From the IMG/VR virus record IMGVR_UViG_2833400001_000001, positions 5,232 to 69,231 of that record: 64,000 nucleotides of DNA. One strand, given 5' to 3'. Below the pieces are notes generated by a model, which was given only the letters and a program-made list of their open reading frames with translations, was not told the DNA's origin and did no database searches. This document shows positions 2-49,200 of the stretch, in pieces. Position 1 is the first letter of the stretch. Each line of letters opens with the position of its first letter. A program made the translations under genes and the position numbers. The stretch comes from a virus (lineage: Duplodnaviria; Caudoviricetes).

Positions 2-382
2 GATACATTTATCAACCAAATTTATCTCAATAGCCAATTACAATTATCCTTAATTACTATGTTAGTGACTAACAAGTCTGTACCTTACAACGCTACTGGT
101 AAAGCGTTACAACGTGCAGCGTGTACAGATCCAATCAATGAAGCGTTGAATTTTGGTTCTATTGAGATCGGAATTCAGTTATCCGAATTACAAAAAGCAA
201 CCATCAATAATCAAGTTGGGTACGATGCAGCCGCATTAATTAATGCTCAAGGCTATGCGTTGCATATTGGTGATGCAACCGCGCAAGTAAGAGCTAATCG
301 CGGTTCATTCCCATCTAAATTGTGGTATGCGGACGGCGGTAGCGTTCACGCAATCAATCTTGCTTCTATTGCTGTTCAATAG
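2..382 (+). CDS. Tail sheath-like protein (DUF3383-type), C-terminal part; gene begins before the window
   Basis: Frame open from base 2 (DTFINQIYLNSQLQ...) to C-terminal WYADGGSVHAINLAS typical of this family; precedes tube-like gene. Confidence 0.75.
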   Translation, partial: DTFINQIYLNSQLQLSLITMLVTNKSVPYNATGKALQRAACTDPINEALNFGSIEIGIQLSELQKATINNQVGYDAAALINAQGYALHIGDATAQVRANRGSFPSKLWYADGGSVHAINLASIAVQ

Positions 383-6384: not shown

Positions 6385-6689
6385 GTATTTATCAGATTCC
6401 ATTAGCCAGCACACCTAATCAAGAACTTACAGTTAATGTTGGTGGGCAGAATATCGGCATTACACTAAATACACGCTTGAATAACGAGCTTTACATCTCA
6501 GTTACAGCTGATGATAAGCAAATTATTAATAATCGTATTTGTCGCAACAAAACAAAGCTAATTAATGCGGAATATCAAGACATTAACGGAGAATTAGTCT
6601 TTTTAGACTCGCAAGGTAATTCAGATCCAAATTGGAAAGAATTAAATTCTCGCTATTTATTATATTGGGTTGATAAAGATGAGTTTTAA
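6381..6689 (+). CDS. Baseplate plug-like protein
   Basis: 102 aa; IPLASTPNQELTV N-terminus and SRYLLYW C-terminus; overlaps neighbours. Confidence 0.6.
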   Translation: MSIYQIPLASTPNQELTVNVGGQNIGITLNTRLNNELYISVTADDKQIINNRICRNKTKLINAEYQDINGELVFLDSQGNSDPNWKELNSRYLLYWVDKDEF

Positions 6690-8192: not shown

Positions 8193-8543
8193 ATGGAAAC
8201 GTTATTTTTACATCCAAATACATGGGATTTGGCGTTAGATGATGGTGGAAATATTGCTTTAGCTAAAGATCCATACTCAAAAGCTCAAGATGTTGCTAGT
8301 GCGATAAAGCTATTTAAAGGTGAGTTGTACTACAACACGAAAAAAGGAATACCGTACTTTGAAGAAACGCTAGGTCAGAAACAATCTTATGCGTTGTATA
8401 AATATCGCTTAGAAAAGGCAGCTTTAACAGTTCCTGATGTCGTTAGTGCAAGAGCAAATATTACAGGGAAAGCTGGACGCGTATTAAGCGGACAAGTGTT
8501 TTTTACTGATGAAAAAGGTAAGGAGTTGAGTGTACAGCTATGA
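8193..8543 (+). CDS. Baseplate wedge gp25/W-like protein
   Basis: TWDLALDDGGNIA, LFKGELYYNTKKGIPY motifs; between spike and J-like gene. Confidence 0.7.
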   Translation: METLFLHPNTWDLALDDGGNIALAKDPYSKAQDVASAIKLFKGELYYNTKKGIPYFEETLGQKQSYALYKYRLEKAALTVPDVVSARANITGKAGRVLSGQVFFTDEKGKELSVQL

Positions 8544-9724
8544 GTTTACCAGATATTCAATTTACGCCAGAAGGCGTCATTTTGCCAACAGAAGAAGATA
8601 TTTTAAACGGATTGTTTGATATTTTTGATACTGCGTTTAGTAGCAAGTTAAACAGAAACTTAGAAACACCACAAGGCCAACTTATCACATCACTTACCGC
8701 AATCATTGCTGATAAAAATAATCAAATTGCCTGGCTAGCTAATAATCTCGATCCGACATTTAGTGACGGTCGAATGCAAGATGCAATTGGTAATATTTAT
8801 TTTTTATCACGCAAAGGACAAATAAATTCAACTGTAGTTTGTGAGTTTACTGGTATGGCTGGAACAGTAATACCGAAAGGCTTTGAGCTTGTTGATAACA
8901 ATGGAAATTCTTGGTTTTTGAATAAAGAAATATCTATATTATCTAGCGGCACAGTGACAGGAGAACTGACGGCAGCTGGTGTATATAGTGCAGAAAAAAA
9001 CACGATTACTACAATTAAGAGTGCTATTGTTGGCTTAGATAGAGTAACTAATCAAGAAGCGGCTATTATCGGTATTGAAAAAGAAAATCGAGCTGATTTC
9101 GGCACTAGAATCAAAAATAGTGTGGCGAAAAACTCGCAGGGTATGTTGGGTTCTATTTATTCTAACGTATCTGATTTAACAGGCGTTTTAGATTGTTACG
9201 TTGTTGATAATGTCAAAGATACACCGATTACTGTTGGCGTAACAAATTACACGCTTACACCGCATAGTGTTTATGTTGCTGTTGTTGGTGGTGATGAAGC
9301 AGAGATCGCAAAAAATATTTGGATCTACACAGGGAATGGTTGCGATTATAACGGTAATACAACAGTCAATGTTACAGATGATAACTACCAAACACCAAAA
9401 CCGACATATGAAGTTAAGTTTATGCGCCCAAATCCAACACCAATCTATTTTAGAGTCAAAGTAAGACAAGGTGCGCAATTAAATTATGAAAGTGCGGTAA
9501 AAGAAGCGATTATTAATGCATTTAGTAGAGAAACACTCAATAAAATAGGTAGTCAGTTGTATGCAATGACTTATGCAAGTGACATCATCACTGCACTATC
9601 AGGAAGTAAGCTACTTGATATTGATGTGTCTTTATCAAGAGATAATTATGCTGATTATGTTGAGTTAGGAATAGATCAATATCCTATTGTGTCATCAGAT
9701 AGCATTGAGGTGATATTAGTATGA
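8540..9724 (+). CDS. Baseplate J/gp47-like protein
   Basis: 394 aa; ETPQGQL, DGRMQDAIG, PHSVYVAVVGG, GCDYNGNTTV motifs. Confidence 0.85.
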   Translation: MSLPDIQFTPEGVILPTEEDILNGLFDIFDTAFSSKLNRNLETPQGQLITSLTAIIADKNNQIAWLANNLDPTFSDGRMQDAIGNIYFLSRKGQINSTVVCEFTGMAGTVIPKGFELVDNNGNSWFLNKEISILSSGTVTGELTAAGVYSAEKNTITTIKSAIVGLDRVTNQEAAIIGIEKENRADFGTRIKNSVAKNSQGMLGSIYSNVSDLTGVLDCYVVDNVKDTPITVGVTNYTLTPHSVYVAVVGGDEAEIAKNIWIYTGNGCDYNGNTTVNVTDDNYQTPKPTYEVKFMRPNPTPIYFRVKVRQGAQLNYESAVKEAIINAFSRETLNKIGSQLYAMTYASDIITALSGSKLLDIDVSLSRDNYADYVELGIDQYPIVSSDSIEVILV

Positions 9725-13308: not shown

Positions 13309-14334
13309 TTATTTTAATAGATTTATTGTTTTTCTTAAGTGAATCAATGTCTTATGTGTATATACTGCATCTCCAACGTTTGATGATGCGTGTCCGAGTA
13401 ATTTATCTCGAGCAACTTTGTTTGCTCCAGCGGCGTCAAGTAATGTTGCAACTGTGTGTCGGCAATCGTGTGTGCTATGCTTTGCTCTGATTGCACGCAT
13501 TACTCGTGCAAATTGTGATGCTGCTTGCGAGTAAATTAGAGCCGTTAAATCTTGATTAACAAATAAGTATTTTGCGCGCTTATTCTCGTGCATTTTTCGT
13601 TCAATAATGGGGAGTATACGTGGGTGTATTGGGATAATACGGATGCCGGCTTTTGTCTTTGCCGTCACAATATCAAAATACTTTTGCTTAAGATTTACGC
13701 AAGACCGCTTTAGTTGCAACAACTCACTGACTCGCATACCGGTGTACAGTAAAATTAGCGTTAAATCGGTGTTGACTGTCGTACATTGCCACACTCGATT
13801 AATTTGTTGGCGTGAAAATATTTTATGTGGGTTTTTCGGAGTATTTTTGCCCATTTGCAAATATTGTCCATATGACTTATCTACCCATTCGTTAATAATA
13901 GCGTATGAAAATAGTTGGTTAATCAAAGATCTTACTTTTTTAAGACTTGCGTATGACAATCCTTTTTCTCGCATTGTATCTAGCACTGTCTGTAGATGAC
14001 GATATTTAATCTTATTAATCGGCATTGCGCTAATCGTTGCAAGGTGATTATAGCTATTTTGATAACTTGATGCGGTTGCAATAGATACTTGTTTTGTGTG
14101 AATTGGATACCAGAGCTGATAAACTTTTGCGAGAGTTACGCTAGGCTCTGGCTTGTCTTGCTGATTGTAATTAGCTAGTGCAGTTAATGCTTCGTCTCTT
14201 GTTGCGTAGTATCCAATTACATTATAAATCTGTTTTTTCTTTTCATTATATCCCACGGTCTTGCGAGCAACATAAGGTTTGCGTCTTGATCCACTTAACT
14301 TCACAACTGAGCCATAGCCATTTGGTAGTCTCAT
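13309..14334 (-). CDS. Tyrosine recombinase, probable shufflon invertase
   Basis: Catalytic set TGMRVSEL, KTKAG, HDCRH, LGH, VYTH; directly beside the inverted-site cluster. Confidence 0.85.
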   Translation of the reverse strand: MRLPNGYGSVVKLSGSRRKPYVARKTVGYNEKKKQIYNVIGYYATRDEALTALANYNQQDKPEPSVTLAKVYQLWYPIHTKQVSIATASSYQNSYNHLATISAMPINKIKYRHLQTVLDTMREKGLSYASLKKVRSLINQLFSYAIINEWVDKSYGQYLQMGKNTPKNPHKIFSRQQINRVWQCTTVNTDLTLILLYTGMRVSELLQLKRSCVNLKQKYFDIVTAKTKAGIRIIPIHPRILPIIERKMHENKRAKYLFVNQDLTALIYSQAASQFARVMRAIRAKHSTHDCRHTVATLLDAAGANKVARDKLLGHASSNVGDAVYTHKTLIHLRKTINLLK

Positions 14335-14426
14335 TTTTATCCTCCGTGTTTTTCTTTAAACCAGTTTAAAATCAATTATCTTTTGTTTTGTATAAGCTAA
14401 TTACAGTTAAATAAGAGGTAATTAGT

Positions 14427-15068
14427 ATGGCACTAACACATTTAATTGTTATTGATCCAAAGAGTGGAGAAAGAGTGACATCTTATGTTGTACCAATTCA
14501 CGGTAAAACATATGAGGTGTTACTAGATAAAGCGCAAGCAGACTATCCCGGATATCTATATTTGCGAGATAATGATGGTGAGTTGCAAGCGATATTAACG
14601 CGTCAAGATGCGCATTGGTTTAACAATAAAGTTCAGATTAGACCATCTCAAATTCACGACTGGGATGGTTCTGCGTGGGTGATTAACGAAGAAAAAAAAG
14701 CAGAGTTACTTAAAAATCAACAAAGTGCAACTTGGGAGCACATTAAAGCAGAAAGGACAAGACGTACTGAAGGTGGTGTCTATGTTAAATCAGTTGATAA
14801 ATGGTTTCACACAGATCAGCCGAGCCGTATTCAGTATTTAAGTATTCAACAAATGCCGACATTACCAGAAAGTTTTGCTTGGAAAACTATGGATAATACA
14901 TTTGTTAATATGACAAAAGCATTGATTGATGAATTGATTTTATCTTTGCGCATTAAAGAACAAGCTGATTTTGCAAACGCAGAGCGACATAAAGCGGCAA
15001 TGTTAGAGAGCGATAACCCCGCAGACTATGACTATTCAGCAGGATGGAGTGACATTTATGACGAATAA
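14427..15068 (+). CDS. Tail fibre assembly-type protein (DUF4376-like)
   Basis: HDWDGSAW, WEHIKAER..GGV...KWFHTD, WKTMDN, AERHKAAM motifs; homologous to 56853-57590. Confidence 0.75.
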   Translation: MALTHLIVIDPKSGERVTSYVVPIHGKTYEVLLDKAQADYPGYLYLRDNDGELQAILTRQDAHWFNNKVQIRPSQIHDWDGSAWVINEEKKAELLKNQQSATWEHIKAERTRRTEGGVYVKSVDKWFHTDQPSRIQYLSIQQMPTLPESFAWKTMDNTFVNMTKALIDELILSLRIKEQADFANAERHKAAMLESDNPADYDYSAGWSDIYDE

Positions 15069-16697: not shown

Positions 16698-16780
16698 AAA
16701 ACCACATAAAGTGAGATTTTTGCGTTTTTAATATTCTCATTTTATGTGGTTTCATTTCTCAAATTATGCGGCTTGCTACA
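16698..16780. promoter_or_regulatory. Mu-type right end: sites R3 (16699-16718, inverted), R2 (16733-16752), R1 (16755-16774), terminal CA
   Basis: R2 ATTCTCATTTTATGTGGTTT vs R1 TTTCTCAAATTATGCGGCTT 15/20 at 22-bp period; R3 reverse complement 18/20 to R2; R1 ends 6 bp before ...GCTACA. Confidence 0.8.
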
Positions 16781-19700
16781 GCCAATGCCAAAAAAATGCC
16801 CTCAAAGAAACACGTAGAATTTTAGACCAATTTGCTGAACGTTGTGGTGATCGTGTCTGGCAAACGGCAATTACTCACGCTGGTTTGCAAACGTTAAAGC
16901 AATTATTACGGCAAACAGCAAGAAAAAATACAGCAGTCGCCTGTTATTGGACGCATGGAAAAAATCAAACTTCATTATTGTGGATAGTAGGCGATCAACG
17001 ACAATTTAATCAAAAAGGGCGTGTACCAACCAATCGAACTCAACGCAATATTTTACGGCAAGAAGATGAAATTGCTTGGCATAATGCTTATAGCATACAG
17101 ATTATTAGTGCATTAGCGGCGTTGTTGCACGATTTAGGCAAATCTAGTATCGGTTTTCAGGAAAAATTAAAACCACAAGCGCCTTTTTATGCTGATCCTT
17201 ATCGACATGAATGGATTTCGGTACGGATATTTGAAGCAATGATTCAAGGATGCCAAACCGATATGGAATGGCTAACACGCTTGGCGAATTGGGCGGAATA
17301 TCAGCAGCAAAATTCAAGTTGGTTGCAACAGATAAAGATAGAAGATCCAACACCAAAACAAGGGCGATTTGAACAGTTATCACCATTAGCGAAAACGATT
17401 ATTTGGTTAATTTCTTCACATCATAGGGTGCCGTATTTACCAGAATTTGCCGAAAAAAATAATAAGCGGAAAAAGGTATGGGAAACGGAAGTAGCGCACG
17501 ATTTAAAGCGTTTTTATCGGTTGTTATCAGCAAGTAATGGCTGGGTTGCTAATCCGCATAGTGAACATCCACAACCGAAGAAATTCTGGCGTTTTAATCA
17601 GTTAGTTTCAGATAGCTCTGCGTGGCAAAAAGCAATGACTCGTTGGGCAAATAAAGCCTTAAAACATACGTCGTTAATGAATTTAGTCAGCAATGTTGAA
17701 AATATTAGTGATCCTTTTTTATTGTTGTTGAGTAGATTGTCATTAATTACAGCTGATCACCATTATTCTTCACTTAATCCTAATCCTCAATTTGGAGAGA
17801 AGGATTTTCCTCTATTTGCGAATACAGATGCGAAAGGGCAGACGAAACAACGTTTAGATGAGCATTTGCTAGGTGTTTGTCAAAGTGCAGTGCGTTTTGC
17901 CCGTATTTTGCCAAGATTGAAAACATTGTTGCCAGCATTAACACATAAAAGTTTTAATAAACGGAGTGATATTGCTCGCTTTCAATGGCAGAATCGAGCT
18001 TTCGATTTAGCAAAACGATTACAAGCCAGTACTGAACAGCAAGGTTTTTTTGGCGTAAATATGGCGAGCACTGGATGTGGTAAAACTGTTGGAAATACTC
18101 GCATTATGTATGCACTCGCCAATCCGCAATTAGGGGCAAGGTTTACTATTGCTTTAGGATTAAGGGTATTAACTTTGCAGACAGGTAGAGCTTTAAAAGA
18201 TAAATTGCGATTAGATGATGATGCACTGGCTGTATTGGTAGGCGGTGATGCTGTTAATAAGTTATTTGCTTTACAGCAAGAAAAATCTGGTAGTGAATCT
18301 GTCGAAGATTGGCTGGAAATGGCACAAGTTGATGGCGGTATAGTTGGAGAGAGTGCGTTAGATAACCTTGCAGAATTTAATACATTGCTTGCTAATCATA
18401 AAGCGAAAAATTTATTACTTACCCCACTCGTTACCTGCACGATTGATTACTTGATGAATGCTAGTGAATGCTTGCGAGGTGGTAAACACATTGTGCCAAT
18501 ATTACGTTTATTGAGTGGTGATTTAATTCTAGATGAACCAGATGATTTTGATCAAAATGACTTGCCAGCCTTGAGCCGTTTAGTGCATCTAGCAGGATTA
18601 TTTGGCAGTAAAGTGTTGCTTTCATCTGCAACATTAACGCCAGATTTGGTGAGTGGTTTGTTTGAAGCTTATCAAGCAGGAAGAAATGTTTGGAATCAGA
18701 ATAATCAATTACCATCTCAAGGCGTTTGTTGTGCTTGGTTTGATGAATTTAATCAGCAAAGTTTTTCTTGTTCAGATCTCGCCAGTTATCAAGCACAGCA
18801 TCAAGAATTTGTTCAGCAAAGAATTAATAAATTGAAACAACAACCCACCAGACGTATGGCAAAAGTAATGTCTTTGCCTAGTGTTGCTGGTGGGGAAAAT
18901 CAAACACTGAATTGGCCGCTATTTGCTCAACATCTGTTACAACAAGCAATAGCATTTCATACCGAGTTTGCGATTAGTGATGATTCATCTACAAAACGAG
19001 TAAGTGTTGGCTTGCTACGGTTTGCGAATATTCGTCCAATGATTCCAACTATCCAAGCAATGTTGCAACAACAATGCCCAGAAAATACAGAAATCCATCT
19101 TTGTTGTTATCATTCACGCCAATTGTTGTTATTACGTAGCCGCTTAGAACAAAGTTTGGATCGCTTATTAACACGAAATGATCCACAGGCTTTATTTCAA
19201 CAACCTGAAATAAAATTAGCATTAGACAATAGCCAAAATGAAAATCATATTTTTATTGTAGTAGGCAGTCCGGTGACGGAAGTGGGACGTGATCATGATT
19301 ACGATTGGGCAATTATCGATCCGTCGTCAATGCGTTCTATTATCCAATTAGCTGGACGAGTGTGGCGACATCGTCCAGATAAAGTTGCAACAACGCCGAA
19401 TATTGCATTGTTACCAAGTAACTGGAAAGGGCTAAAAGGGCATCACTATACACGAGAAATTTTTTATCATCCCGGTTTTGAAAGCAGTGAACATCCTCTC
19501 ATTTCTCACCGTACACAAGATATTATTAACCCAGAACAACTTGCTGTTGTGGACGCAGTAGCGAGAATTGAAGCTCCAACTGAATTGGATGAGAATGCGA
19601 AGGCACAAAAAACGCTAGCAGAGTTAGAGCATAGTGTGATGAGAAAGATGTTTAATAGTTCTAGTTTAAATTATGTCAATGGCTATTGGCGTAGTGATAA

Positions 19701-20088
19701 TGCTAAATTAGCTGCACACTATACGTTGACTACGCCGTTTCGGGCCTCACAAAAAATGGAAGATTTTGTCTGTTTACCTGATGATGAAAGTTCGTGGGGT
19801 TATGCCTTTGCGTATAGTGAAAAAGCACATCAGAATTTATTCTCTTGTAATAAAGAGTGGCATAGGTTTCAGTATCAACCGATTAAAAATCAAAATTCAC
19901 TGATTAAGCCATGGCTTGTTTTTTCCTTAACAACAGCATTGGATGAGCTAACAGAAGCATTAAAGTTAAAAGATATTGAACAAACAGCGTTATCTTATGC
20001 AACCGTTTCATTAAGAAAAGATGAGCAAACAGAAGCAGTTTGGCAATTTAATGAGTTTTTAGGCTTTTGGCGACAGGAAGAGCAATAG
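16744..20088 (+). CDS. cas3: Type I-F Cas2-Cas3 fusion helicase-nuclease; native N-terminus replaced by phage-end sequence
   Basis: SQCQKNALKETRRILDQFAER (Cas2), LHDLGK (HD), STGCGKT, ILDEPD, SAT, QLAGRVWRH; first 12 codons come from the Mu-type end. Confidence 0.95.
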   Translation: MWFHFSNYAACYSQCQKNALKETRRILDQFAERCGDRVWQTAITHAGLQTLKQLLRQTARKNTAVACYWTHGKNQTSLLWIVGDQRQFNQKGRVPTNRTQRNILRQEDEIAWHNAYSIQIISALAALLHDLGKSSIGFQEKLKPQAPFYADPYRHEWISVRIFEAMIQGCQTDMEWLTRLANWAEYQQQNSSWLQQIKIEDPTPKQGRFEQLSPLAKTIIWLISSHHRVPYLPEFAEKNNKRKKVWETEVAHDLKRFYRLLSASNGWVANPHSEHPQPKKFWRFNQLVSDSSAWQKAMTRWANKALKHTSLMNLVSNVENISDPFLLLLSRLSLITADHHYSSLNPNPQFGEKDFPLFANTDAKGQTKQRLDEHLLGVCQSAVRFARILPRLKTLLPALTHKSFNKRSDIARFQWQNRAFDLAKRLQASTEQQGFFGVNMASTGCGKTVGNTRIMYALANPQLGARFTIALGLRVLTLQTGRALKDKLRLDDDALAVLVGGDAVNKLFALQQEKSGSESVEDWLEMAQVDGGIVGESALDNLAEFNTLLANHKAKNLLLTPLVTCTIDYLMNASECLRGGKHIVPILRLLSGDLILDEPDDFDQNDLPALSRLVHLAGLFGSKVLLSSATLTPDLVSGLFEAYQAGRNVWNQNNQLPSQGVCCAWFDEFNQQSFSCSDLASYQAQHQEFVQQRINKLKQQPTRRMAKVMSLPSVAGGENQTLNWPLFAQHLLQQAIAFHTEFAISDDSSTKRVSVGLLRFANIRPMIPTIQAMLQQQCPENTEIHLCCYHSRQLLLLRSRLEQSLDRLLTRNDPQALFQQPEIKLALDNSQNENHIFIVVGSPVTEVGRDHDYDWAIIDPSSMRSIIQLAGRVWRHRPDKVATTPNIALLPSNWKGLKGHHYTREIFYHPGFESSEHPLISHRTQDIINPEQLAVVDAVARIEAPTELDENAKAQKTLAELEHSVMRKMFNSSSLNYVNGYWRSDNAKLAAHYTLTTPFRASQKMEDFVCLPDDESSWGYAFAYSEKAHQNLFSCNKEWHRFQYQPIKNQNSLIKPWLVFSLTTALDELTEALKLKDIEQTALSYATVSLRKDEQTEAVWQFNEFLGFWRQEEQ

Positions 20089-20185: not shown

Positions 20186-20995
20186 GGTCTAAGCTGCCTA
20201 TGCGGCAGTAAAGGCACAGGAAGAGGTACCTGCTCACATCATGGATTTCTAAGCTGCCTATGCGGCAGTAAAGAAACATCTATTGATTTGCATGGTATTC
20301 ATTATTTTCTAAGCTGCCTATGCGGCAGTAAAGTTCGCCATTAAACATTTAGGATGTTTTAATGATTTCTAAGCTGCCTATGCGGCAGTAAAGAATGGGT
20401 TTATGCCGGTGGGGAAAAGTTACCATTTCTAAGCTGCCTATGCGGCAGTAAAGTGCGGATCAAGTCTTTAATTGGGCGGATAACTTTTTCTAAGCTGCCT
20501 ATGCGGCAGTAAAGCATTACCAGTTTCGTAGTGACTAGGTGTAATCTTTCTAAGCTGCCTATGCGGCAGTAAAGGAGTACCGAGAAAGCTACATCAAGAT
20601 CTACATTTTCTAAGCTGCCTATGCGGCAGTAAAGTTATTCGGACTCTAACCAAGGGGGAACGCTAGTTTCTAAGCTGCCTATGCGGCAGTAAAGGTCTCA
20701 TTGTACTGTCCGCCTAGTACGTTCGTTTTCTAAGCTGCCTATGCGGCAGTAAAGCACTATCAGGTAAACCTGTTATGCTTAGAAATTTTCTAAGCTGCCT
20801 ATGCGGCAGTAAAGCTAGTAGTAAAAAGCCAAGAAAGAAAAATAATGTTTCTAAGCTGCCTATGCGGCAGTAAAGTGAGTATTGCTACATTGATATTAGG
20901 CGAAAGTTTTCTAAGCTGCCTATGCGGCAGTAAAGTAAGTGTGTAATTCGTCGCACCAACAGTGATTTTTCTAAGCTGCCTTTATGGCAGTGTAG
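20186..20995 (-). CRISPR. Type I-F CRISPR array, 14 repeats (28 bp, CTTTACTGCCGCATAGGCAGCTTAGAAA), 13 spacers of 32-33 bp
   Basis: Repeats counted by hand; Cas6f-type hairpin CTGCC-GCATA-GGCAG; both terminal repeats degenerate; orientation supported by CC PAMs of two near-matches. Confidence 0.98.
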
Positions 20996-21087
20996 TCTTT
21001 GATGTAAGATAAAATATTGAATTTAAAAGAAAATATCTGTTTTTAGAAAAGTGAGAGTTCCGAAAAAAAGTGCATTTTTCCGAAACT

Positions 21088-29854: not shown

Positions 29855-30535
29855 CTACTCAATAAAATTCAGCTTCTGGCTTTGATGAACGATCACTTTC
29901 CCTTGAATAAAGAGTTGGTTTTCATCATCAATGTCCCATTCTTTGTAAGTTTTGTTATCAGATAACACAAGGAATTTCTCGCCTATACGTTGTAACCGCT
30001 TAATATATAAAGCATTTTTATAGTTGAAAATATAAACGCCATCACCATCAAATGATTGAATTTTGATATTAACAAACACCATATCACCAGAATTGAATGT
30101 TGGTGACATTGAATCACCTTTGATATTGATTACTCTAATACCGTCAGGATTGATGCCTCTAAACAGTGTGTAATATTGTTCAGGAACGTAATATAAGCGA
30201 CTAACCACTTCAACAAGATCGCCTGTTGTACCATTACCAGCACTAGCTTCAACATTAAGAACCTCAATGATAACTTTATCGTTTATGACTTTTAATTCAG
30301 TAGGTAGATCACTGTCATTATCAAACCAGTTATTGGGTAGATCTAAGGTTTTACATATTTCAGCAACAATTTTTTCGCCAATTGGTTTAGCACCTTTTTT
30401 GTCTTCAGGGTACAGCATTCTTGATACATAACTAGGCTCTTTACCAATTTTTCTTGCAAATTCAGCAACGTTTCCATTGCAAAGTTCGTCTATCAAACTT
30501 TGTAGTTTATGTTGTCTAATCGCTCGTTTATTCAT
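29855..30535 (-). CDS. cI: CI-like repressor (HTH + S24 peptidase)
   Basis: EFARKIGKEPSYVSRM HTH; KGDSMSPT and YIKRL S24 motifs; divergent from cro. Confidence 0.9.
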   Translation of the reverse strand: MNKRAIRQHKLQSLIDELCNGNVAEFARKIGKEPSYVSRMLYPEDKKGAKPIGEKIVAEICKTLDLPNNWFDNDSDLPTELKVINDKVIIEVLNVEASAGNGTTGDLVEVVSRLYYVPEQYYTLFRGINPDGIRVINIKGDSMSPTFNSGDMVFVNIKIQSFDGDGVYIFNYKNALYIKRLQRIGEKFLVLSDNKTYKEWDIDDENQLFIQGKVIVHQSQKLNFIE

Positions 30536-37538: not shown

Positions 37539-37766
37539 ATGAAAATGTTTAAAGATATGCCGGTTGAATCTCAAGTATATGGTTGGCTTACAGCTTTTTT
37601 TGGTGCGCTAACAATCAGTGAGTGGGCGGTCTTAATAGGGATTATCGTAACAGTGGCAGGTTATTTACGAGAAAGTCGTTACAAAAAGCGCATGTTAGAA
37701 CTTGAAGAGATTAAAGCTGGCGTTAGAGATACATCCGGGAAATTAATTAACAATGAAAATCGCTAA
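37539..37766 (+). CDS. Holin (HP1-type)
   Basis: 75 aa with TM segment, first gene of lysis cassette. Confidence 0.8.
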   Translation: MKMFKDMPVESQVYGWLTAFFGALTISEWAVLIGIIVTVAGYLRESRYKKRMLELEEIKAGVRDTSGKLINNENR

Positions 37767-38271
37767 GAAATTAATTGTTTGCTCTGTTGCTACAGTAATT
37801 GGGATAGTTATTACTCAACACTCAGATGAATTACGTACATCAAAAGCCGGGATGGAGGTGATTGGCAATGCTGAGGGGTGTATTAAAAATCCTTACCGGT
37901 GTCCGAATGACGTTTTAACCGTTGGTATCGGTTCAACAGAAGCGAGCGGACAGAAAATTGAGCAGAAAATTTACTCGTTAGATGAAATCGCTAAGCGATG
38001 GGTAAACGACATTAAAATCGCTGAGCAATGTGTTAATCGTTACGCTAACGGTCAAGCGATGCCACAAGGTGCTTTTGACGCACTTACATCAATCACGTTC
38101 AATGTAGGCTGCACAACACTAAAAAACTCAACGCTTTTTAAACTAGCTCGCAACGGTTACACGCCGCAAATGTGCGATCAATTTAGTAGATGGGTTTATG
38201 CCGGCGGACAAAAGCTTAACGGATTAATTATTAGGCGAGAGAAAGAGAAACAATTATGTTTAGCACGCTAA
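37753..38271 (+). CDS. SAR-type endolysin (GH24 lysozyme)
   Basis: N-terminal hydrophobic anchor; EGC...YRCPNDVLTVGIGST; RWVYAGG..LNGL..RR. Confidence 0.9.
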   Translation: MKIAKKLIVCSVATVIGIVITQHSDELRTSKAGMEVIGNAEGCIKNPYRCPNDVLTVGIGSTEASGQKIEQKIYSLDEIAKRWVNDIKIAEQCVNRYANGQAMPQGAFDALTSITFNVGCTTLKNSTLFKLARNGYTPQMCDQFSRWVYAGGQKLNGLIIRREKEKQLCLAR

Positions 38272-41049: not shown

Positions 41050-43206
41050 ATGGCAGAAGCAAAAACATTAGATGGCTTTGGCAGTGAGTTACAAGGCTTA
41101 CTGTATGAACAAATGAAACAACGTCAACCAATTACTGAGCGTTGGGTTAGTGATATGTATCAATATCGTAATCAGTACGAAAGCGGTACAAAAGCAAACG
41201 GATCACAAGTCTTTGTTGGCTATACGCGCAGTAAAACGGATGCGTGGACAGCTCAAATGACAGATATGTTATTTCCATCTGATGATAAAAACTACGGCAT
41301 TCAGCCCACACCAATCCCTGAAATCGCAACACTTGCAAAACAGCAAGCAGAAACACCCGATGTTATAATGGCAAGACAGTTAATGCAACAAGCCAAAGAA
41401 AGTGCTGAAGCTATGGAGAAATTAATTGACGATCAGTTGCTCGAATGTGATTACGCTGCTGAAGCAAGATTATGTTTACATTATGCGGCGGTATTGGGTA
41501 CAGGAATTTTGCGAGCGCCGATTGTTGAATTAAAAGAAAAACGCTATTACCAACAAACGCCGAATGGTGAATGGCAGGCGCAGACAGAAAGTTATATTGC
41601 ACCAACAGCTAAAGCAATATTGCCATGGGATTTTGTGCCAGATATGTCAGCACCAACATTAAAAGACTGTTTGTTTGTGTTTGAGCGTAATGCGGTAACA
41701 AAAAGAGAGTTACAAAATCTTGCTAAACATCCTTACTACTTAAAAGATAATGTATTGCAACTCTTAGAATCTGAGGCATCAGAAACGCATAACAGCAGTA
41801 GTGATTTATCGTCATATAACGATACATTGCGTGAGTTATCTGGTTTAGAAAAGGTCGTAAATGATAAGCGATACGAGTTATGGACATATCATGGGAATAT
41901 TCCTGTTTCATTAATCGAGCAAGCAAACCAACAGTTAGCAGATAGCTATAAGATTGAACTAACAGAAGAACAGCAACAATTAGAAGAAATTAATGGCGTT
42001 GTGGTGATGTCAGGTAACGGCAAAATTATTAGCGTAAATGTGAGTCCGTTAGATTTAGATGATTTCCCTTACTCGGTGTATGTTTGTGAACCTGATGCAG
42101 CTTGCTTATTTGGCTTTGGCATTCCTTATCTTTGCCGAGATGCGCAAGAAATCCTTAATACAGCGTGGCGAGGAATGATTGATAACGGCGTATTGACGAT
42201 TGGCGATCAAGTTGTTGTCAATAAGTCTGTATTAGAGCCGGCTGATAAAGATTGGAATATTAAGCCTAATAAAGTTTGGACTACCACAGGCGGAGCTGGT
42301 GTGGCTGCACAAGTCGAAGCACAACGAGCATTTGGGGTATTTTCGTTTCAATCTCGACAAGCAGAATTTGCTAACATCATTCAAATGTCAAAGGCATTCA
42401 TGGATGAGGAAAGCGGTTTACCGATGATTGCTCAAGGGGAACAAGGGCAAGTGACACCAACACTTGGTGGAATGTCTATGTTAATGAACGCGGCCAACGC
42501 AGTACGTCGCAGACAAGTAAAAGAATGGGATGATTCTGTTACCAAACCGCTTATCAGACGATTTTACGAATATAACATGCAGTTTAGTGACGACCCTAAA
42601 GTGAAAGGCGATATGCAAATTATTGCGCGCGGCACTTCTGCTTTGTTGGTCAAAGAAACGCAAACAGCACAGATTATTGACTTGCTAGACCGTTTTGGGC
42701 AACACCCAGAATTAAGCCAGGCTTTTGATTGGTATGATGGCTTACGAACATTGATGCAATCTATGTCGATGGGGGCTAAAAATATGCTTATCCCTCGTGA
42801 GGAATATGAACAGAAACTACAACAAATGCAGCAAGCACAAGCACAGCAACCGCAAGACCCTGCAATAATGAAAGCACAAATGGAAATGCAGTTAGCGCAA
42901 CAGAAACAGCAACATGAACTACAAATTGCACAATTGAAGCTTGAATCTGAGCTGAAAATTGAGCAAATGAAAGTAGCAATCAAAGAAAAAGAACTTGAGA
43001 TCAAACTAATGGAAATCCAGGCAAATCAACAACACTCTCAACAAAAATTGCAGGTAGATAAAGAGCTAAATCAAGCTAAGCTGACTGCTGATTTGCAACT
43101 CAATACCGGTAAACAAGCGATCGAAATGCAGAAATTTAAAACAGAGGTTGCATTAAAGAACCAACCAACCACTAACCCAACAGGTAACTACGGGTTAGAA
43201 CAGTAA
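41050..43206 (+). CDS. Portal protein with coiled-coil barrel tail
   Basis: 718 aa after TerL; Gln-rich C-terminus as in podovirus portals. Confidence 0.85.
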   Translation: MAEAKTLDGFGSELQGLLYEQMKQRQPITERWVSDMYQYRNQYESGTKANGSQVFVGYTRSKTDAWTAQMTDMLFPSDDKNYGIQPTPIPEIATLAKQQAETPDVIMARQLMQQAKESAEAMEKLIDDQLLECDYAAEARLCLHYAAVLGTGILRAPIVELKEKRYYQQTPNGEWQAQTESYIAPTAKAILPWDFVPDMSAPTLKDCLFVFERNAVTKRELQNLAKHPYYLKDNVLQLLESEASETHNSSSDLSSYNDTLRELSGLEKVVNDKRYELWTYHGNIPVSLIEQANQQLADSYKIELTEEQQQLEEINGVVVMSGNGKIISVNVSPLDLDDFPYSVYVCEPDAACLFGFGIPYLCRDAQEILNTAWRGMIDNGVLTIGDQVVVNKSVLEPADKDWNIKPNKVWTTTGGAGVAAQVEAQRAFGVFSFQSRQAEFANIIQMSKAFMDEESGLPMIAQGEQGQVTPTLGGMSMLMNAANAVRRRQVKEWDDSVTKPLIRRFYEYNMQFSDDPKVKGDMQIIARGTSALLVKETQTAQIIDLLDRFGQHPELSQAFDWYDGLRTLMQSMSMGAKNMLIPREEYEQKLQQMQQAQAQQPQDPAIMKAQMEMQLAQQKQQHELQIAQLKLESELKIEQMKVAIKEKELEIKLMEIQANQQHSQQKLQVDKELNQAKLTADLQLNTGKQAIEMQKFKTEVALKNQPTTNPTGNYGLEQ

Positions 43207-43272: not shown

Positions 43273-46200
43273 ATGAGTACAATTTACTTAAGTGATGCAA
43301 CACGCAAGCGTTTATCAGAAACCGCCTATGGTGGAAAAAACAAAGAAGATGAAGCTGCGTCTTATCTTGGCGCAATGACAGCTACTTATGAACAGCCGAA
43401 AGAGCAACAAGGTGTAATTGGCGATACGATTGACGCATTTGAAATGGGTCTTGGTAGAGGAGCTAGCGATTTAAGTCGTTTAGTTGCAATTGGGGCAAAC
43501 AAACTCGGTTTTGATAGTGTAGAAAGCTGGTTCAATAAAGCGGCTGATGCCTCTGCTCAATATGCTGATGAGCAAATGAATGAAATGTCAGATGAGATGA
43601 AAGCTGCTCTAAAACAAGATGTAACTGACGATCCCACTGCACTTATGAATATTCGTTGGTGGGCAGGGAACTTAGGAGCCGTATTAGGTAGTGAATTAGA
43701 TACAGTGCTTGTCACAATAGGTACGTTCGGTGCTGGTTCAGCTGCTTATGCTGGAACAAAAACTGCCGCAAAACAGGGTTTAAAGCAAGTCTTTAAGAAA
43801 GAATTAGCGAATAAAGTTGGCGAAGTAGCTGTCAATGAAGCATTAAAGAGAGGAGCAAGTAAGCAATTAGCAAGAGTCGCTGGTGTTACTGCTGTTCAGT
43901 CTGCAATGATGGCTGGTTCACGTGCGAATCAAATCAGAGATGAAATGTTAAATCTTTCTGATGATGAGTTGGCTAATAATGAGCAATTCCAACAAGTTTA
44001 CAATGACTTGTACAACACTGAAGAAGGAATGGGATTAAGCATTGATGAGCGATTTGAGGTTGCAAAAAACAACTTTATCGCAAAAGCGGCAAGAGAAGCT
44101 GCATTTAATCCAGTTTCAGTATTAAGCGATTTAGCAACAAATGCTGTTAGCGGTCTTGGTGGTGGCTTTATGGGGGTTGGTAAAGCCTCAAAAAACGTTG
44201 TAGATGGATTAAAAAAAGGGGCATTAAAAGAGAGTGTTACTGAAGCAATACAAGAGGTTACTGATCAATATTCTGTTAATACTACTGCAAAAGATTATTA
44301 CGATCCAAATCGAGATGTAACAGAGGGAATGGCGAGCAATGCCATTCAGGGAGCGATTTTAGGGGCGGCATTTGGTGCACCGACAGGCGCATTAGATGTT
44401 TACAACGATAGACGTGTACTCAATAAAGCGAAGAAAGAATTTTTAAAATTTAAGTCAACAGGCAATGAAACAGTAGATGAGTCATTACGCAGCTATGTTG
44501 ATATGGTAAATTCACAAGCGAATGACCTCGAAGATCTTATTTCGCAAAGTCGCTTTAATGCCCATTATGTTATTGCACAAAAAGAAGCAAGAGCGGCAAA
44601 TATTATGGCTCAAGACGCTTCACAAGCTAATTTAGGAACTAACGAAGTTGAGATACAAAATACTAGTCCAGCTGAAGATGATGTTGTTGATGTAAATAAT
44701 GATCAATCAAGTAATCAAGAAGATGTTATAGACCAGAATAATATTGCCGCAACACAAGATACACCAACAGAAAATACAGTAAGTTTCTTAACAGACAATG
44801 ATTTGTCTAAGTTGTTTACTCACAATGCAAAATTAGCAAATAAGATTGCTGATTTACAAGATAGACTAGAAGATCCGACTATTTCAGATGTAGATAAACA
44901 AGGATTACAAGCTGAACTTAATTCTCATATCAATGAAACAAAAGATTTCTTTAATCCACCATTTTCTTTCGAGAAAACGCAATTAGATGACATTGCCAAA
45001 GTTAATCCTCAACTAGCTAAAGATTTAACAGCAACACAATCTATTATTACTAATAAGTTAGCACATCCAAGAATTAAGAAAGCGGCGGAACAGCAGTTTT
45101 CAACTTTGCTAGATCAGGTTAAACAAGGAAATTTTGTTAAGTTTAATGACTTACAAAGAAAACAATTGGAACAGCGCCAACAAGAGATAAATAAACAAAT
45201 TACACCAGATCAAAATCCAAAATTAAGCAATGATGAACAAATTGATTTTGTTGAACAACAGCTTTATGACGACCAATTTACCCCAGAACAACATATAGAG
45301 CCTTACAGCGAAGTTAGGTTTAGCCGTTCACAGCATAATACACTAACCGAACAAGCTTACAATCAAGCAAAAGCAGAGGGTAGAACAGAGCTGGATTTTA
45401 ATCAATGGAAACAGGTTCGCACACCAGAGTTTAAAGCTTGGTTTGGTGATTGGGAAAACGACCCAAAAAATGCAAGTAAAGTGATTAATCCTAGAACCGG
45501 CGAGCCATTGGTAGTGTATCATGGTAGTAATAATTATGAGGAAACTCGCAAATGGAATGATAAACAAAAGTATTATGAAACAGAATATCAACCGTTTAAC
45601 ATATTTAAGCGTAATGTTGATGGATTAGAAAACCAAGGACATTTCTTCAATAGTGATAAAGATAATGCGTTTGGTTATGGTGTCAATGAGTACCATACTT
45701 ATTTAAATCTAAAAAATCCGCTTATTATTGATGCAAAGAGCAGTCATTATAGCGCCATTAAACATAAGCGTAATATAAAAGATACGTATGATTGGGCAAA
45801 ATATGCTGAAAATAAAGGTTATGATGGTGTTATCTTTGAAAATGTTAGAGATGGGGCTGATTTTTCCGCTCTAGATAATGATACAAATAATTTTGTTGCG
45901 TTTGCTTCCAATCAAATAAAATCAGCAACAGATAATATCGGCACATTTGATCCAAATAATAATGATATTCGCTACTCTCGTAAAGGTAATGTCAATCGTC
46001 CTAAATCAGAAAGCTTAGAGAAGCTACGCAACGCAGAGAGTATTCACATATCAGGTAATGATATTGAGCCAAGTGCGGATTTAAAACAATATAAACGTAA
46101 TGCGTTAAATTATGGAAAACTGCTTCGAGGTAGTTATATCAATAAAGACACTGGGCAAGAGATTACTCTTGGGCGTGCAGGGGTGCAAGAGGTGTTACGA

Positions 46201-49200
46201 CACGACTACAAGGACCCTGACCATTTACAAAGTATTGCAGCCATTCCACAGATTATTGAAAATGCGATATATATTGACACTTTGCCAAATGAAGATAGAA
46301 GGAAACACCCTGATATTGAAAGTTATGATTATTACGCTGTAGGTTTGAATATTGGTGGTGATTATTATACTGTTAAAGCCGTTATTGCTAATTCAACGAC
46401 TGGTGAAAAATATTACGATCATAAATTATCAGAGATCGAAAAAGGCGATCTATTAGAAATGACCTCTCGCGTATCAACTGCGGAGATTTCCAACTCATCG
46501 CCTTTATCTAGGATTGAGGATAAACGTTTATTACAACTTTTGCAAGCAGAAACAGCAGACTCAACAGAAAATAATAATGCCCCTCATGATAAACAACAAC
46601 TTCAATCTTTACTCTCTAATATCCTAACACCAGAACAGTCAGCCAATGTTGAAATTGTTACAGGGCAAACCGCACCAGATAACGCTCGCAAATTTATTCG
46701 TGATGGTGTGGAAGGTTGGTTTAATCCAAAAACAGGGAAAGTGACGTTAGTTCCTTCAAATATTAGAGCTACAAAAAACATGAGCCGAGAAATGCGGTTA
46801 GCTTGGGTAGCTTGGCATGAGTTAGGACATTTAGGGGTAAATGTTAAATATCGTGCGGACTATAAAGGCATTATGGAAAAAGCTCGTAAGCATAGTGTCG
46901 TAGGTGCAATGTCAGAAGCGATTATGGCAGACAGAAAACGCTTTGTGGATAAATCAGGCAAATATACCGACCCAGCAGCCACTAACAAAGATATTGCAAC
47001 AGAAGAAGCCTTAGTTGAATTATTGGCTGCGCACGAAACAGGTAATTTTGATGAGCTTCGTCAGCGATACGGTGTAAAAATTAACACTCTACACGAAAAG
47101 AACTTTAAAGCGTGGTTTAAGATTATTGCTGATAAAGTGCGTCAATTGATGAATAAGTTATTTGGACGTTCTTTTGATGAAATGACAGATTACGATCTAA
47201 TTCGTTTAATTGGTGGTATTAAGCAAGGCATTAACAGCAATCCAACACCACCGACAACAGGCAAGCGCTTTAGCTTAAATGAACACCCTGATAGTGATTT
47301 TGCAAGAGCGGTTGATGATGTCGCAAGTGGTAAATTTACAGCCCAACAGGTTATTGATGTAGGAACAACGCCAGCAGTTTTAAAAATGTTAGGTTTACCT
47401 GACGTGAATGTTGTCATTAACGGTTCTGTATTAAAGAAAGTAATGTTAGATAAACATAATGTTAGACCTGAAGTATTAAAACAATTACCACGACAAATTA
47501 ATAACCCTGTTGCCGTAATGAAATCTAGCACACAACAAAATGGCTATGTTGTATTAACTGAATTAACCGAAAACGTAAATGGCGTGGATAAACCTATAAT
47601 CGCTGCATTGCATTTAAAACAATCAAAACAAGGTTTAGAGTTGATTAATATTGCAAGTGTCTATGGGCGTAATATTTCGCAGCTGCAAAATGGATTGAAT
47701 AACGATTTATTATATTGGAATAAAACAAAAGGTTCTCAACTTGCTAGGAGAGTTGGGCTTCAATTGCCATCGTCGCTCACTAGCGCTGAGAACCTTTCGG
47801 TTGGTTCTGGCGATAACCTTACGCTTCAATTGCGATCACCGTTATCTAAGAACCAACCCTTGTCTAATATTAAGACAGAGGAGGATTTAAAGCAATACTT
47901 GCCAGAAATTAAATTTTCAGCGGCCACTTCTGTTTTAGATAGCGCATTTAATAAACTTGGCTATGGCGAAAAGGAAAGCGCTTTAGAACGCGGAGTTAGT
48001 GAGTTTAAACAAGCTAAATCTAGAACTGTTTCAGAATGGAAAGCTTTAGCAACAGATTGGGGCAGAAAAATGAATACATGGGTATTTGATTCTTTAGCGC
48101 CAATCAAGTATTGGGAAGATAAAGCGGGTGTTACCGATCATAGTCAATCCGGATATACAGCAGCACGACTTGCAGCCGGTTCGGGTTCTATTGCTGAAGC
48201 GAGTATGACACATGGTTTACCGGAATGGAAAGATGGCATTATTCAACGTAAAGCAGGAACGAGCAAAAACGATGCTTTATTAGGTATTATGGAAAATCTC
48301 GGTGATGACATGAATAACTTTTTAGCCTGGATTGCCGGTAATCGTGCTGAAAAGTTAATGGCAGAAGGTCGAGAACATAACTTAAGTGTTGAGGAAATCC
48401 AGGAGCTGAAAGCGTTAAATAAAGGCAAAGAGCAAAAGTTTGAACAGGCTCGTAAAAAGCTGATGAATTGGAATAAAGCCATTTTAGATTTAGCGGAGCA
48501 TGCTGGTTTATTTACGAAAGAAGATAGAGCGAAATGGGAAGATACAGAATGGTATATTCCGTTTTATCGTGAAACAGAAGAAGGTGATGTGATTGCACCG
48601 TTTCGTAATAAAGGTCTGGCTAACCAAACAGCTGGAATTAAAAGATTAAAGGGAAGCGATAAAGCGACATCTGATTTACTTAGCAATATCATCACTAACG
48701 CTACAAAATTAATTGATGCGTCAGTCAAAAATGATGCTTTGACTAAAGCGGTTGTCAATCTTGCTGATACAGATGTAATTACGGTTATTGAAAAGCCTAA
48801 TCTAATTGATTATCGACGACTCGAGCAAAATAAACAAGGCAAAGGCATTAAAGATGGTGGTTTAGCTATTGTGAAGATTAAAGGCGAAGATTATATGATC
48901 GAAGTCCACGATAAAGCGCTATTTAATGCTATTACCTCTATCGACCAAAAACCATTAGATTATACTGGCCGTAAAATTTTTACTGGAGCGAAACACGTTT
49001 TAACAGCAACAGTAACCTCAATGCCTGATTTTATTGTGAGAAACTTTTTGCGAGATGTTGTGCAAGCAGCAACAACAGATCGAAATCATATGAAGTTAGG
49101 TGTTGATTCACTCAAAGGCTTGAAAGAGTCATACAGCAAAGGTGGCGCAGCAGTGGATCTAATGTTTTCTGGTGCGTCATTTGGTCATGGGTATATTGAT

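Follow-up and report, generated by a model that had tools for sequence, protein, structure and literature searches.

The leader-most spacer visible in a type I-F CRISPR array segment, which lies between two prophages, is very probably a true memory of a relative of the left-hand one (prophage 1); this memory no longer fits the resident phage, and the spacer is most likely silent or harmless. The window, i.e., the whole stretch of DNA analyzed here, is 64,000 bases long and comprises bases 5232 to 69231 of a single virus record of 69,231 bases. The features concerned are as follows.

8540-9724, plus strand: Baseplate_J/baseplate wedge gene of prophage 1, 394 amino acids (PF04865, E = 3.4e-10; phrog_6, E = 4e-52)
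9226-9257, plus strand: protospacer inside the Baseplate_J gene, with its CC PAM at 9224-9225; 25/32 to the focal spacer
16744-20088, plus strand: cas2-3 reading frame, 1114 codons (Pfam Cas3_I-F_Cas2, E = 9e-38; Cas3_HD; Cas3 C-terminal)
20186-20995, minus strand in crRNA sense: part of a type I-F CRISPR array, comprising 14 repeats and 13 spacers, trailer end towards cas2-3
20936-20967, minus strand: focal spacer, the leader-most of the array segment on this side of prophage 2
20968-20995, minus strand: hybrid (att-type) repeat, its array-side half consensus and its other half phage derived
21088-22128, minus strand: tyrosine integrase of prophage 2, 92 bases from the right-hand end of the array

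A phage structural module to the left of cas2-3 encodes tape measure, baseplate hub, baseplate wedge, Baseplate_J, DUF2612, and tail fiber proteins, as well as a tyrosine recombinase and a DNA methyltransferase on the prophage 1 side. The array lies downstream of the cas2-3 frame, from which it is separated by 97 bases. On its right, the integrase leads into over 40 kb of the right-hand prophage (prophage 2), and the record ends inside it. The array has a hairpin repeat with an 8-nt 3' handle, an adjoining fused cas2-3, and a CC PAM, all of which place it in type I-F. Its repeats are of the 28-nt I-F type, 12 of the 14 corresponding to Rfam CRISPR-DR4 on the minus strand (42.9 bits; cutoff, 35), and its spacers are 32 to 33 nt long. 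No cas1 gene, no cas8f/5f/7f/6f (csy) genes, and no native leader were found in the 69-kb record. The cas1 and csy genes are present in F150, a strain of Gallibacterium salpingitidis that is conspecific with the window's strain, and in G. melopsittaci.

A sequence-only reading of this DNA had reported that the focal spacer, on the minus strand, matches the plus-strand protospacer at 25 of 32 positions with CC directly upstream, and this match was confirmed. Pfam Baseplate_J and phrog_6 matches likewise upheld its assignment of the target to the baseplate J gene of prophage 1, which adjoins the array locus. The mismatches fall at spacer positions 1, 4, 13, 15, 16, 19, and 28, which correspond to codon positions 3, 3, 3, 2, 3, 3, and 3 of the 8540-9724 frame. 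Six of the seven mismatches are therefore on the 11 third-codon positions (hypergeometric P = 0.003), and the spacer encodes ITVGATNYTL where the resident site encodes ITVGVTNYTL, in keeping with the reported predominance of synonymous differences. The dinucleotide CC, at a background frequency of 3.1%, was found at 11 of the 11 matches of at least 26/32 made by spacers from F150 and G. melopsittaci, which agrees with its having been named the correct I-F PAM (5'-CC).

It is scarcely credible that an unrelated spacer resembles this site by chance. One shuffled spacer among the first 300 trials did hit 25/32, but over 4,000 shuffles only 2 (0.05% per spacer) scored at least 25/32 at any site of the 69-kb record, and none of the 4,000 did so with CC. 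Furthermore, baseplate J homologues with 71% and 59% amino acid identity (from other Pasteurellaceae and IMG/VR) gave a best spacer match of 19/32, and this match falls 686 or 683 bases into the gene, the same offset as in the resident gene, within what is a variable stretch of the baseplate J protein. Together, the shuffles, the CC, the codon phase, and the shared gene offset in homologues indicate that the focal match reflects homology rather than chance. On sequence comparison, the resident baseplate J site is the nearest known sequence to the focal spacer (25/32, against 19/32 for the next).

The synonymous character of the differences and a nucleotide identity of about 78% bear out the earlier proposal of a relative of prophage 1, not the resident itself, as the origin of the spacer. 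Because no 32/32 protospacer was found in the collections searched, we infer the source phage rather than identify it. Such a phage would have approximately 80% DNA identity to the resident in the baseplate J gene and would differ at about 1 base in 5 at the site. A search for perfect protospacers had been recommended together with the sequence-only reading; no collection searched contained a 32/32 site, and hence none contained one in an unrelated element. Searching the INPHARED cultured phages by blastn with the focal spacer returned just one 17-nt chance match, and a codon-degenerate pattern built from the spacer and the resident site had zero matches in IMG/VR. The sole codon-degenerate match, in a JGI metagenome contig, was rejected, since the protein encoded there is unrelated, its sharing of the peptide is fortuitous, and the CC is missing. 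Among baseplate J homologues from 236 Pasteurellaceae species genomes and IMG/VR, the top amino acid identity was 71% (19/32), and among those of cultured phages it was 48%. The protospacer search covered the collections and this record; a perfect target may sit in the rest of the host genome.

We considered whether the source was instead a direct ancestor of the resident prophage, with the seven differences being later escape mutations. The resident gene is the nearest known to the spacer (25/32 versus 19/32), as such descent would have it, yet we regard this account as very unlikely. The PAM is intact, and six of the seven changes are scattered, synonymous, and in third positions, whereas CRISPR escape normally takes one change in the PAM or seed. 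A second spacer of the array, which matches prophage 1 at 28/32, shows the same pattern with an untouched seed, the signature of lineage divergence, and F150 spacers show that a phage nearly identical to the resident circulates unchanged. In the reading that we prefer, that of a memory of a prophage 1 relative, a phage of the prophage 1 lineage would have supplied the spacer, type I-F adaptation having copied 32 bases of its baseplate J gene beside a CC PAM. The resident prophage would be a diverged relative of that phage, and the memory no longer fits it: seven of the 32 positions differ, and two of these (1 and 4) belong to the seed. The locus itself has been hit twice: the end of prophage 1 lies within codon 7 of cas2-3, and prophage 2 is integrated into the repeat beside the focal spacer, which parts the array segment from its leader and from the csy genes. 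Both junctions were observed directly, as were the match, the PAM, and the homology; the order of the acquisition and the two insertions we infer.

At the left junction, the sequence-only reading had prophage 1 interrupting cas2-3, and the end of the prophage does sit inside codon 7. Alignment to F150 showed that the window carries the F150 cas2-3 sequence from position 16781 on and is unrelated to it before 16781. The native first six codons of cas2-3 (MNILLV) are swapped for twelve codons of the prophage 1 end, and from residue 13 the protein is 99% identical to that of F150. No host genes lie between the baseplate gene and the prophage 1 end at cas2-3. In the record, cas2-3 is separated from cas1 and from its native start, and no obvious ribosome-binding site precedes the altered start. 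It would appear from this arrangement that Cas2-3 function is lost. Some expression may nevertheless occur, as judged from the open 1114-amino-acid frame and the phage methyltransferase gene upstream on the same strand. Prophage 1 is putatively Mu-like, an assignment that rests here on its end sequence, and its left half, including the transposase region, lies outside the record. No match to the Mu-type transposase PF02914 was obtained in relatives of the prophage 1 tail module or in the control genomes.

Only the C-terminal approximately 100 codons of the major head gene of prophage 1 are left (contig 1401-1745). To the left of this gene, in the piece outside the window at contig 1-1750, 1.4 kb carries small minus-strand open reading frames, one of them DUF3310. 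Two sites in this piece, at contig 282-313 and 722-753, are matched perfectly by F150 spacers, and a third is matched at 29/32. Because F150 spacers target it, the piece is phage DNA too, and it may be a rearrangement or a fragment of a third phage.

The right junction bears on the claim that the focal spacer is the newest of the array and its last acquisition, which the record does not support. The adjoining repeat, 20968-20995, has five differences from the consensus, all in its integrase-facing half. It falls under the Rfam CRISPR-DR4 threshold, as does the trailer-end repeat (20186-20213), and 12 of the 13 repeats other than the hybrid pass that threshold. In another Pasteurellaceae genome (G071), a 93%-identical integrase adjoins an I-F array whose repeats are of another variant, and the phage-side half of the hybrid repeat recurs in the junction repeat there. 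The recurrence of this junction beside a 93%-identical integrase indicates that the prophage 2 family integrates into I-F repeats, and integration of prophage 2 into a repeat makes 20968-20995 a phage-host att-type hybrid. The G071 locus was also considered as a model for the right junction and was dropped, since its gene order is different.

In G. melopsittaci, the order is cas1 and cas2-3, followed on the opposite strand by the array, a leader of approximately 140 bases, and cas6f-csy3-csy2-csy1. The same conserved leader adjoins cas6f in F150, where the trailer end adjoining cas2-3 is identical to that of the window. Judged by the gene order in these two genomes, it is the right-hand end of the window's array that faces the leader. 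Past prophage 2, outside the record, would then lie the leader and the csy genes, together with whatever newer spacers exist. Neither a consensus first repeat nor the native leader was found before the focal spacer; a phage integrase lies 92 nt past the hybrid repeat. Given the hybrid repeat and the absence of the native leader and cas6f from the record, the focal spacer is just the leader-most on this side of prophage 2, and it is probably not the newest of the array. If prophage 2 entered the first repeat, the focal spacer would be the newest after all.

A terminator-like hairpin (21089-21054) follows the integrase gene, and no promoter-like site was found between this hairpin and the array. 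These observations give a slight indication that the array segment 20186-20995 is no longer transcribed. The hybrid repeat retains the hairpin stem, and crRNA processing could take place if transcription enters from the phage side. On the phage-side flank of the hybrid repeat, an AT-rich stretch of about 30 nt (21007-21036, minus strand) resembles a conserved motif of the native Gallibacterium leader. Its distance to the repeat is approximately 15 to 45 nt, compared with approximately 100 nt in the native leader; the stretch is conserved in the G071 prophage, and the resemblance could be due to chance in AT-rich DNA. Array interruptions were also seen elsewhere. The I-F array of G. melopsittaci (L074:13648-14751) is split by a 1.1-kb insertion with a 120-codon minus-strand open reading frame (14237-14599). 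An array in G071 (L148:5480-6540; G071:C1:601480-602540) is likewise split, by approximately 1 kb with two small adjacent minus-strand open reading frames (99 and 119 codons). G071 carries several I-F arrays with different repeat variants, together with a short plus-strand array beside csy1.

Type I-F targeting is characterized by a seed and a six-base periodicity. Interference was taken to require a matched seed (positions 1 to 5, 7, and 8), the PAM, and near-complete pairing to the PAM-distal end. The focal spacer falls short of this, as positions 1 and 4 of its seed and five positions elsewhere are mismatched, which makes interference improbable; interference against the resident prophage is thus predicted to be unlikely. 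In the I-F1 system of Aggregatibacter, also a member of the Pasteurellaceae, the PAM is CC and Cas2/3 cleaves only after a full-length R-loop has formed (PMC7296934). The 28/32 spacer has an intact seed and falls short as well, having mismatches at positions 25 and 28, in the PAM-distal region that I-F1 needs (PMC7296934).

Priming or low-level self-targeting through the partial match, as the sequence-only reading suggested, stands as a general possibility and is unlikely to operate here for this spacer in view of the two seed mismatches, the disrupted cas2-3, and the leaderless segment. In its full form, in which the focal spacer is the latest acquisition and now drives priming or low-level self-targeting of prophage 1, the suggestion is unlikely. 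It has the position of the spacer in its favor, leader-most of those visible and with CC present, as well as two precedents: mismatched I-F targets can prime, tolerating many mismatches (PMC4117759), and a five-mismatch match causes self-damage in PA14/DMS3 lysogens (PMC11406979). Set against these are the adjoining phage-host hybrid repeat, the absence of the leader and the csy genes from the record, the mismatches at seed positions 1 and 4, and a cas2-3 cut from cas1 and from its own start. I-F adaptation reportedly depends on the complete interference machinery (PMC4678832). Primed acquisition from the resident would also predict some perfect spacers, whereas none of the 13 visible spacers is perfect to the record, the best match being 28/32. 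Nor did any of the 13 form the trace expected of priming, newer perfect-match spacers clustered near a mismatched target. Because cas2-3 is disrupted and the array segment is cut from its leader, priming by the focal spacer is probably moot, and most likely the spacer is silent or harmless today.

Other spacers of the array also match the two prophages. The relevant sites are as follows.

20515-20546, minus strand: second spacer matching prophage 1, 28/32 to contig 2136-2167, with CC and an intact seed
20394-20425, minus strand: spacer matching the prophage 2 endolysin gene, 23/32 with CC; target at 38189-38220 (minus strand)
38189-38220, minus strand: protospacer-like site within the prophage 2 endolysin gene, 37753-38271

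The target of the 28/32 spacer is a head-module gene of prophage 1 (contig 1777-2208; phrog_3714), 3.1 kb to the left of the window, and all four of its mismatches are synonymous and on third codon positions. For the endolysin match, the two peptides are WVYAGGEKLP and WVYAGGQKLN, with codon-consistent differences, and shuffled spacers reached at least 23/32 with CC at a rate of 0.00075 per spacer. A CC PAM is present at all three matches of this array (25/32, 28/32, and 23/32). A further spacer, 20635-20666, has two 21/32 matches in the tail fiber region. Judging from these matches, at least 3 of the 13 visible spacers appear to derive from relatives of the two prophages now in the locus.

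Strain F150 was used for comparison, with 111 spacers from four of its arrays. Against the record, these gave four matches of 32/32, two of 31/32, and one each of 30, 29, 27, and 26/32, all with CC, and one G. melopsittaci spacer matched at 28/32, also with CC. The sites targeted by F150 spacers include the following.

133-164, plus strand: site in the sheath-like gene of prophage 1, 32/32 with CC
6629-6660, plus strand: site in prophage 1, 31/32 with CC
61127-61158, plus strand: site in prophage 2, 31/32 with CC
43171-43202 (30/32) and 30377-30408 (27/32): further sites

In F150, cas1-cas2-3 is intact. When F150 was searched for prophage markers, baseplate J gave just a 30%-identity partial match and the integrase gave none at E <= 1e-60. 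F150 has approximately 125 I-F repeats in at least four arrays. The oldest spacer, beside cas2-3, differs between F150 and the window's strain, and the trailer sequence is identical. On this comparison, the species seems to exist in two states: an immune strain without either prophage marker and a lysogen with ill-fitting memories whose CRISPR-Cas locus has been hit twice.

In Pseudomonas aeruginosa PA14, a type I-F spacer with five mismatches to the Mu-like phage DMS3 sets up a conflict in lysogens; mutation of the spacer or of cas genes, or loss of the CRISPR-Cas region through a phage-mediated deletion, brings it to an end (PMC11406979). The present case resembles that of PA14 CRISPR2 spacer 1 and DMS3 in being of type I-F, with a correct PAM and a partial match to a temperate phage on the same chromosome. 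In both, the conflict is associated with CRISPR-Cas mutation or loss, and in the PA14 experiments some of these changes were caused by transposition of the phage itself. Unlike the PA14 spacer, with its five mismatches, the focal spacer has seven, two of them in the seed, and it is known from sequence alone. The host here is a member of the Pasteurellaceae, the end of a prophage itself lies in cas2-3, and the array is split by another prophage, of the integrase type.

We raise tentatively the possibility that the mismatched memories caused the wreckage, the phages' insertions into the locus being a phage-mediated resolution of CRISPR conflict. If so, prophage 1 lysogeny would have been autoimmune through the seed-perfect 28/32 spacer, helped by the 25/32 spacer, and the surviving lysogens would be just those cells in which the randomly inserting prophage 1 landed in cas2-3. 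Prophage 2 would have escaped its matching spacer by splitting the array, and F150, without either prophage marker, would serve as the control.

The array can also be set beside that of Aggregatibacter actinomycetemcomitans D7S-1, an I-F1 system of the same family with a fused Cas2/3, 28-nt repeats, 32-nt spacers, and CC upstream (PMC7296934). The Cas2-3 of the record shares 55 to 56% identity with that of A. segnis. In D7S-1 the cas genes are intact, whereas here cas2-3 is disrupted and the Cascade genes are outside the record. Prophages integrated into CRISPR repeats occur in the type II-A system of Streptococcus pyogenes. Similarly, prophage 2 sits in a repeat and cuts spacers of the array off from the leader, one of them resembling a gene of that phage type. 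The array here, however, is of type I-F in a member of the Pasteurellaceae, and the likeness concerns the focal spacer's neighbor, not the focal match.

Spacers that half match resident prophages are common and are thought to push bacteria towards CRISPR-Cas loss. The case is a natural counterpart of PA14/DMS3 in a different bacterial family, a phenomenon already on record, and it reveals no new mechanism. It offers a natural pair within one species: in F150 the I-F system is intact, at least four spacers match these phages perfectly, and neither prophage marker was found; the window's strain has diverged spacers alone against them and carries both phages inside its CRISPR-Cas locus. As such, it gives a useful instance from nature for ideas whose tests so far have come mainly from Pseudomonas PA14 and DMS3.

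Two features of prophage 2 were noted in addition. A mini-array of two I-F-like repeats and one spacer lies at 62554-62641 (plus strand), on the strand opposite to the host array. A 2419-codon open reading frame at 43273-50532 (plus strand) has PHROG matches to very large virion-associated proteins, namely the DarB-like antirestriction, methyltransferase, and virion RNA polymerase families.
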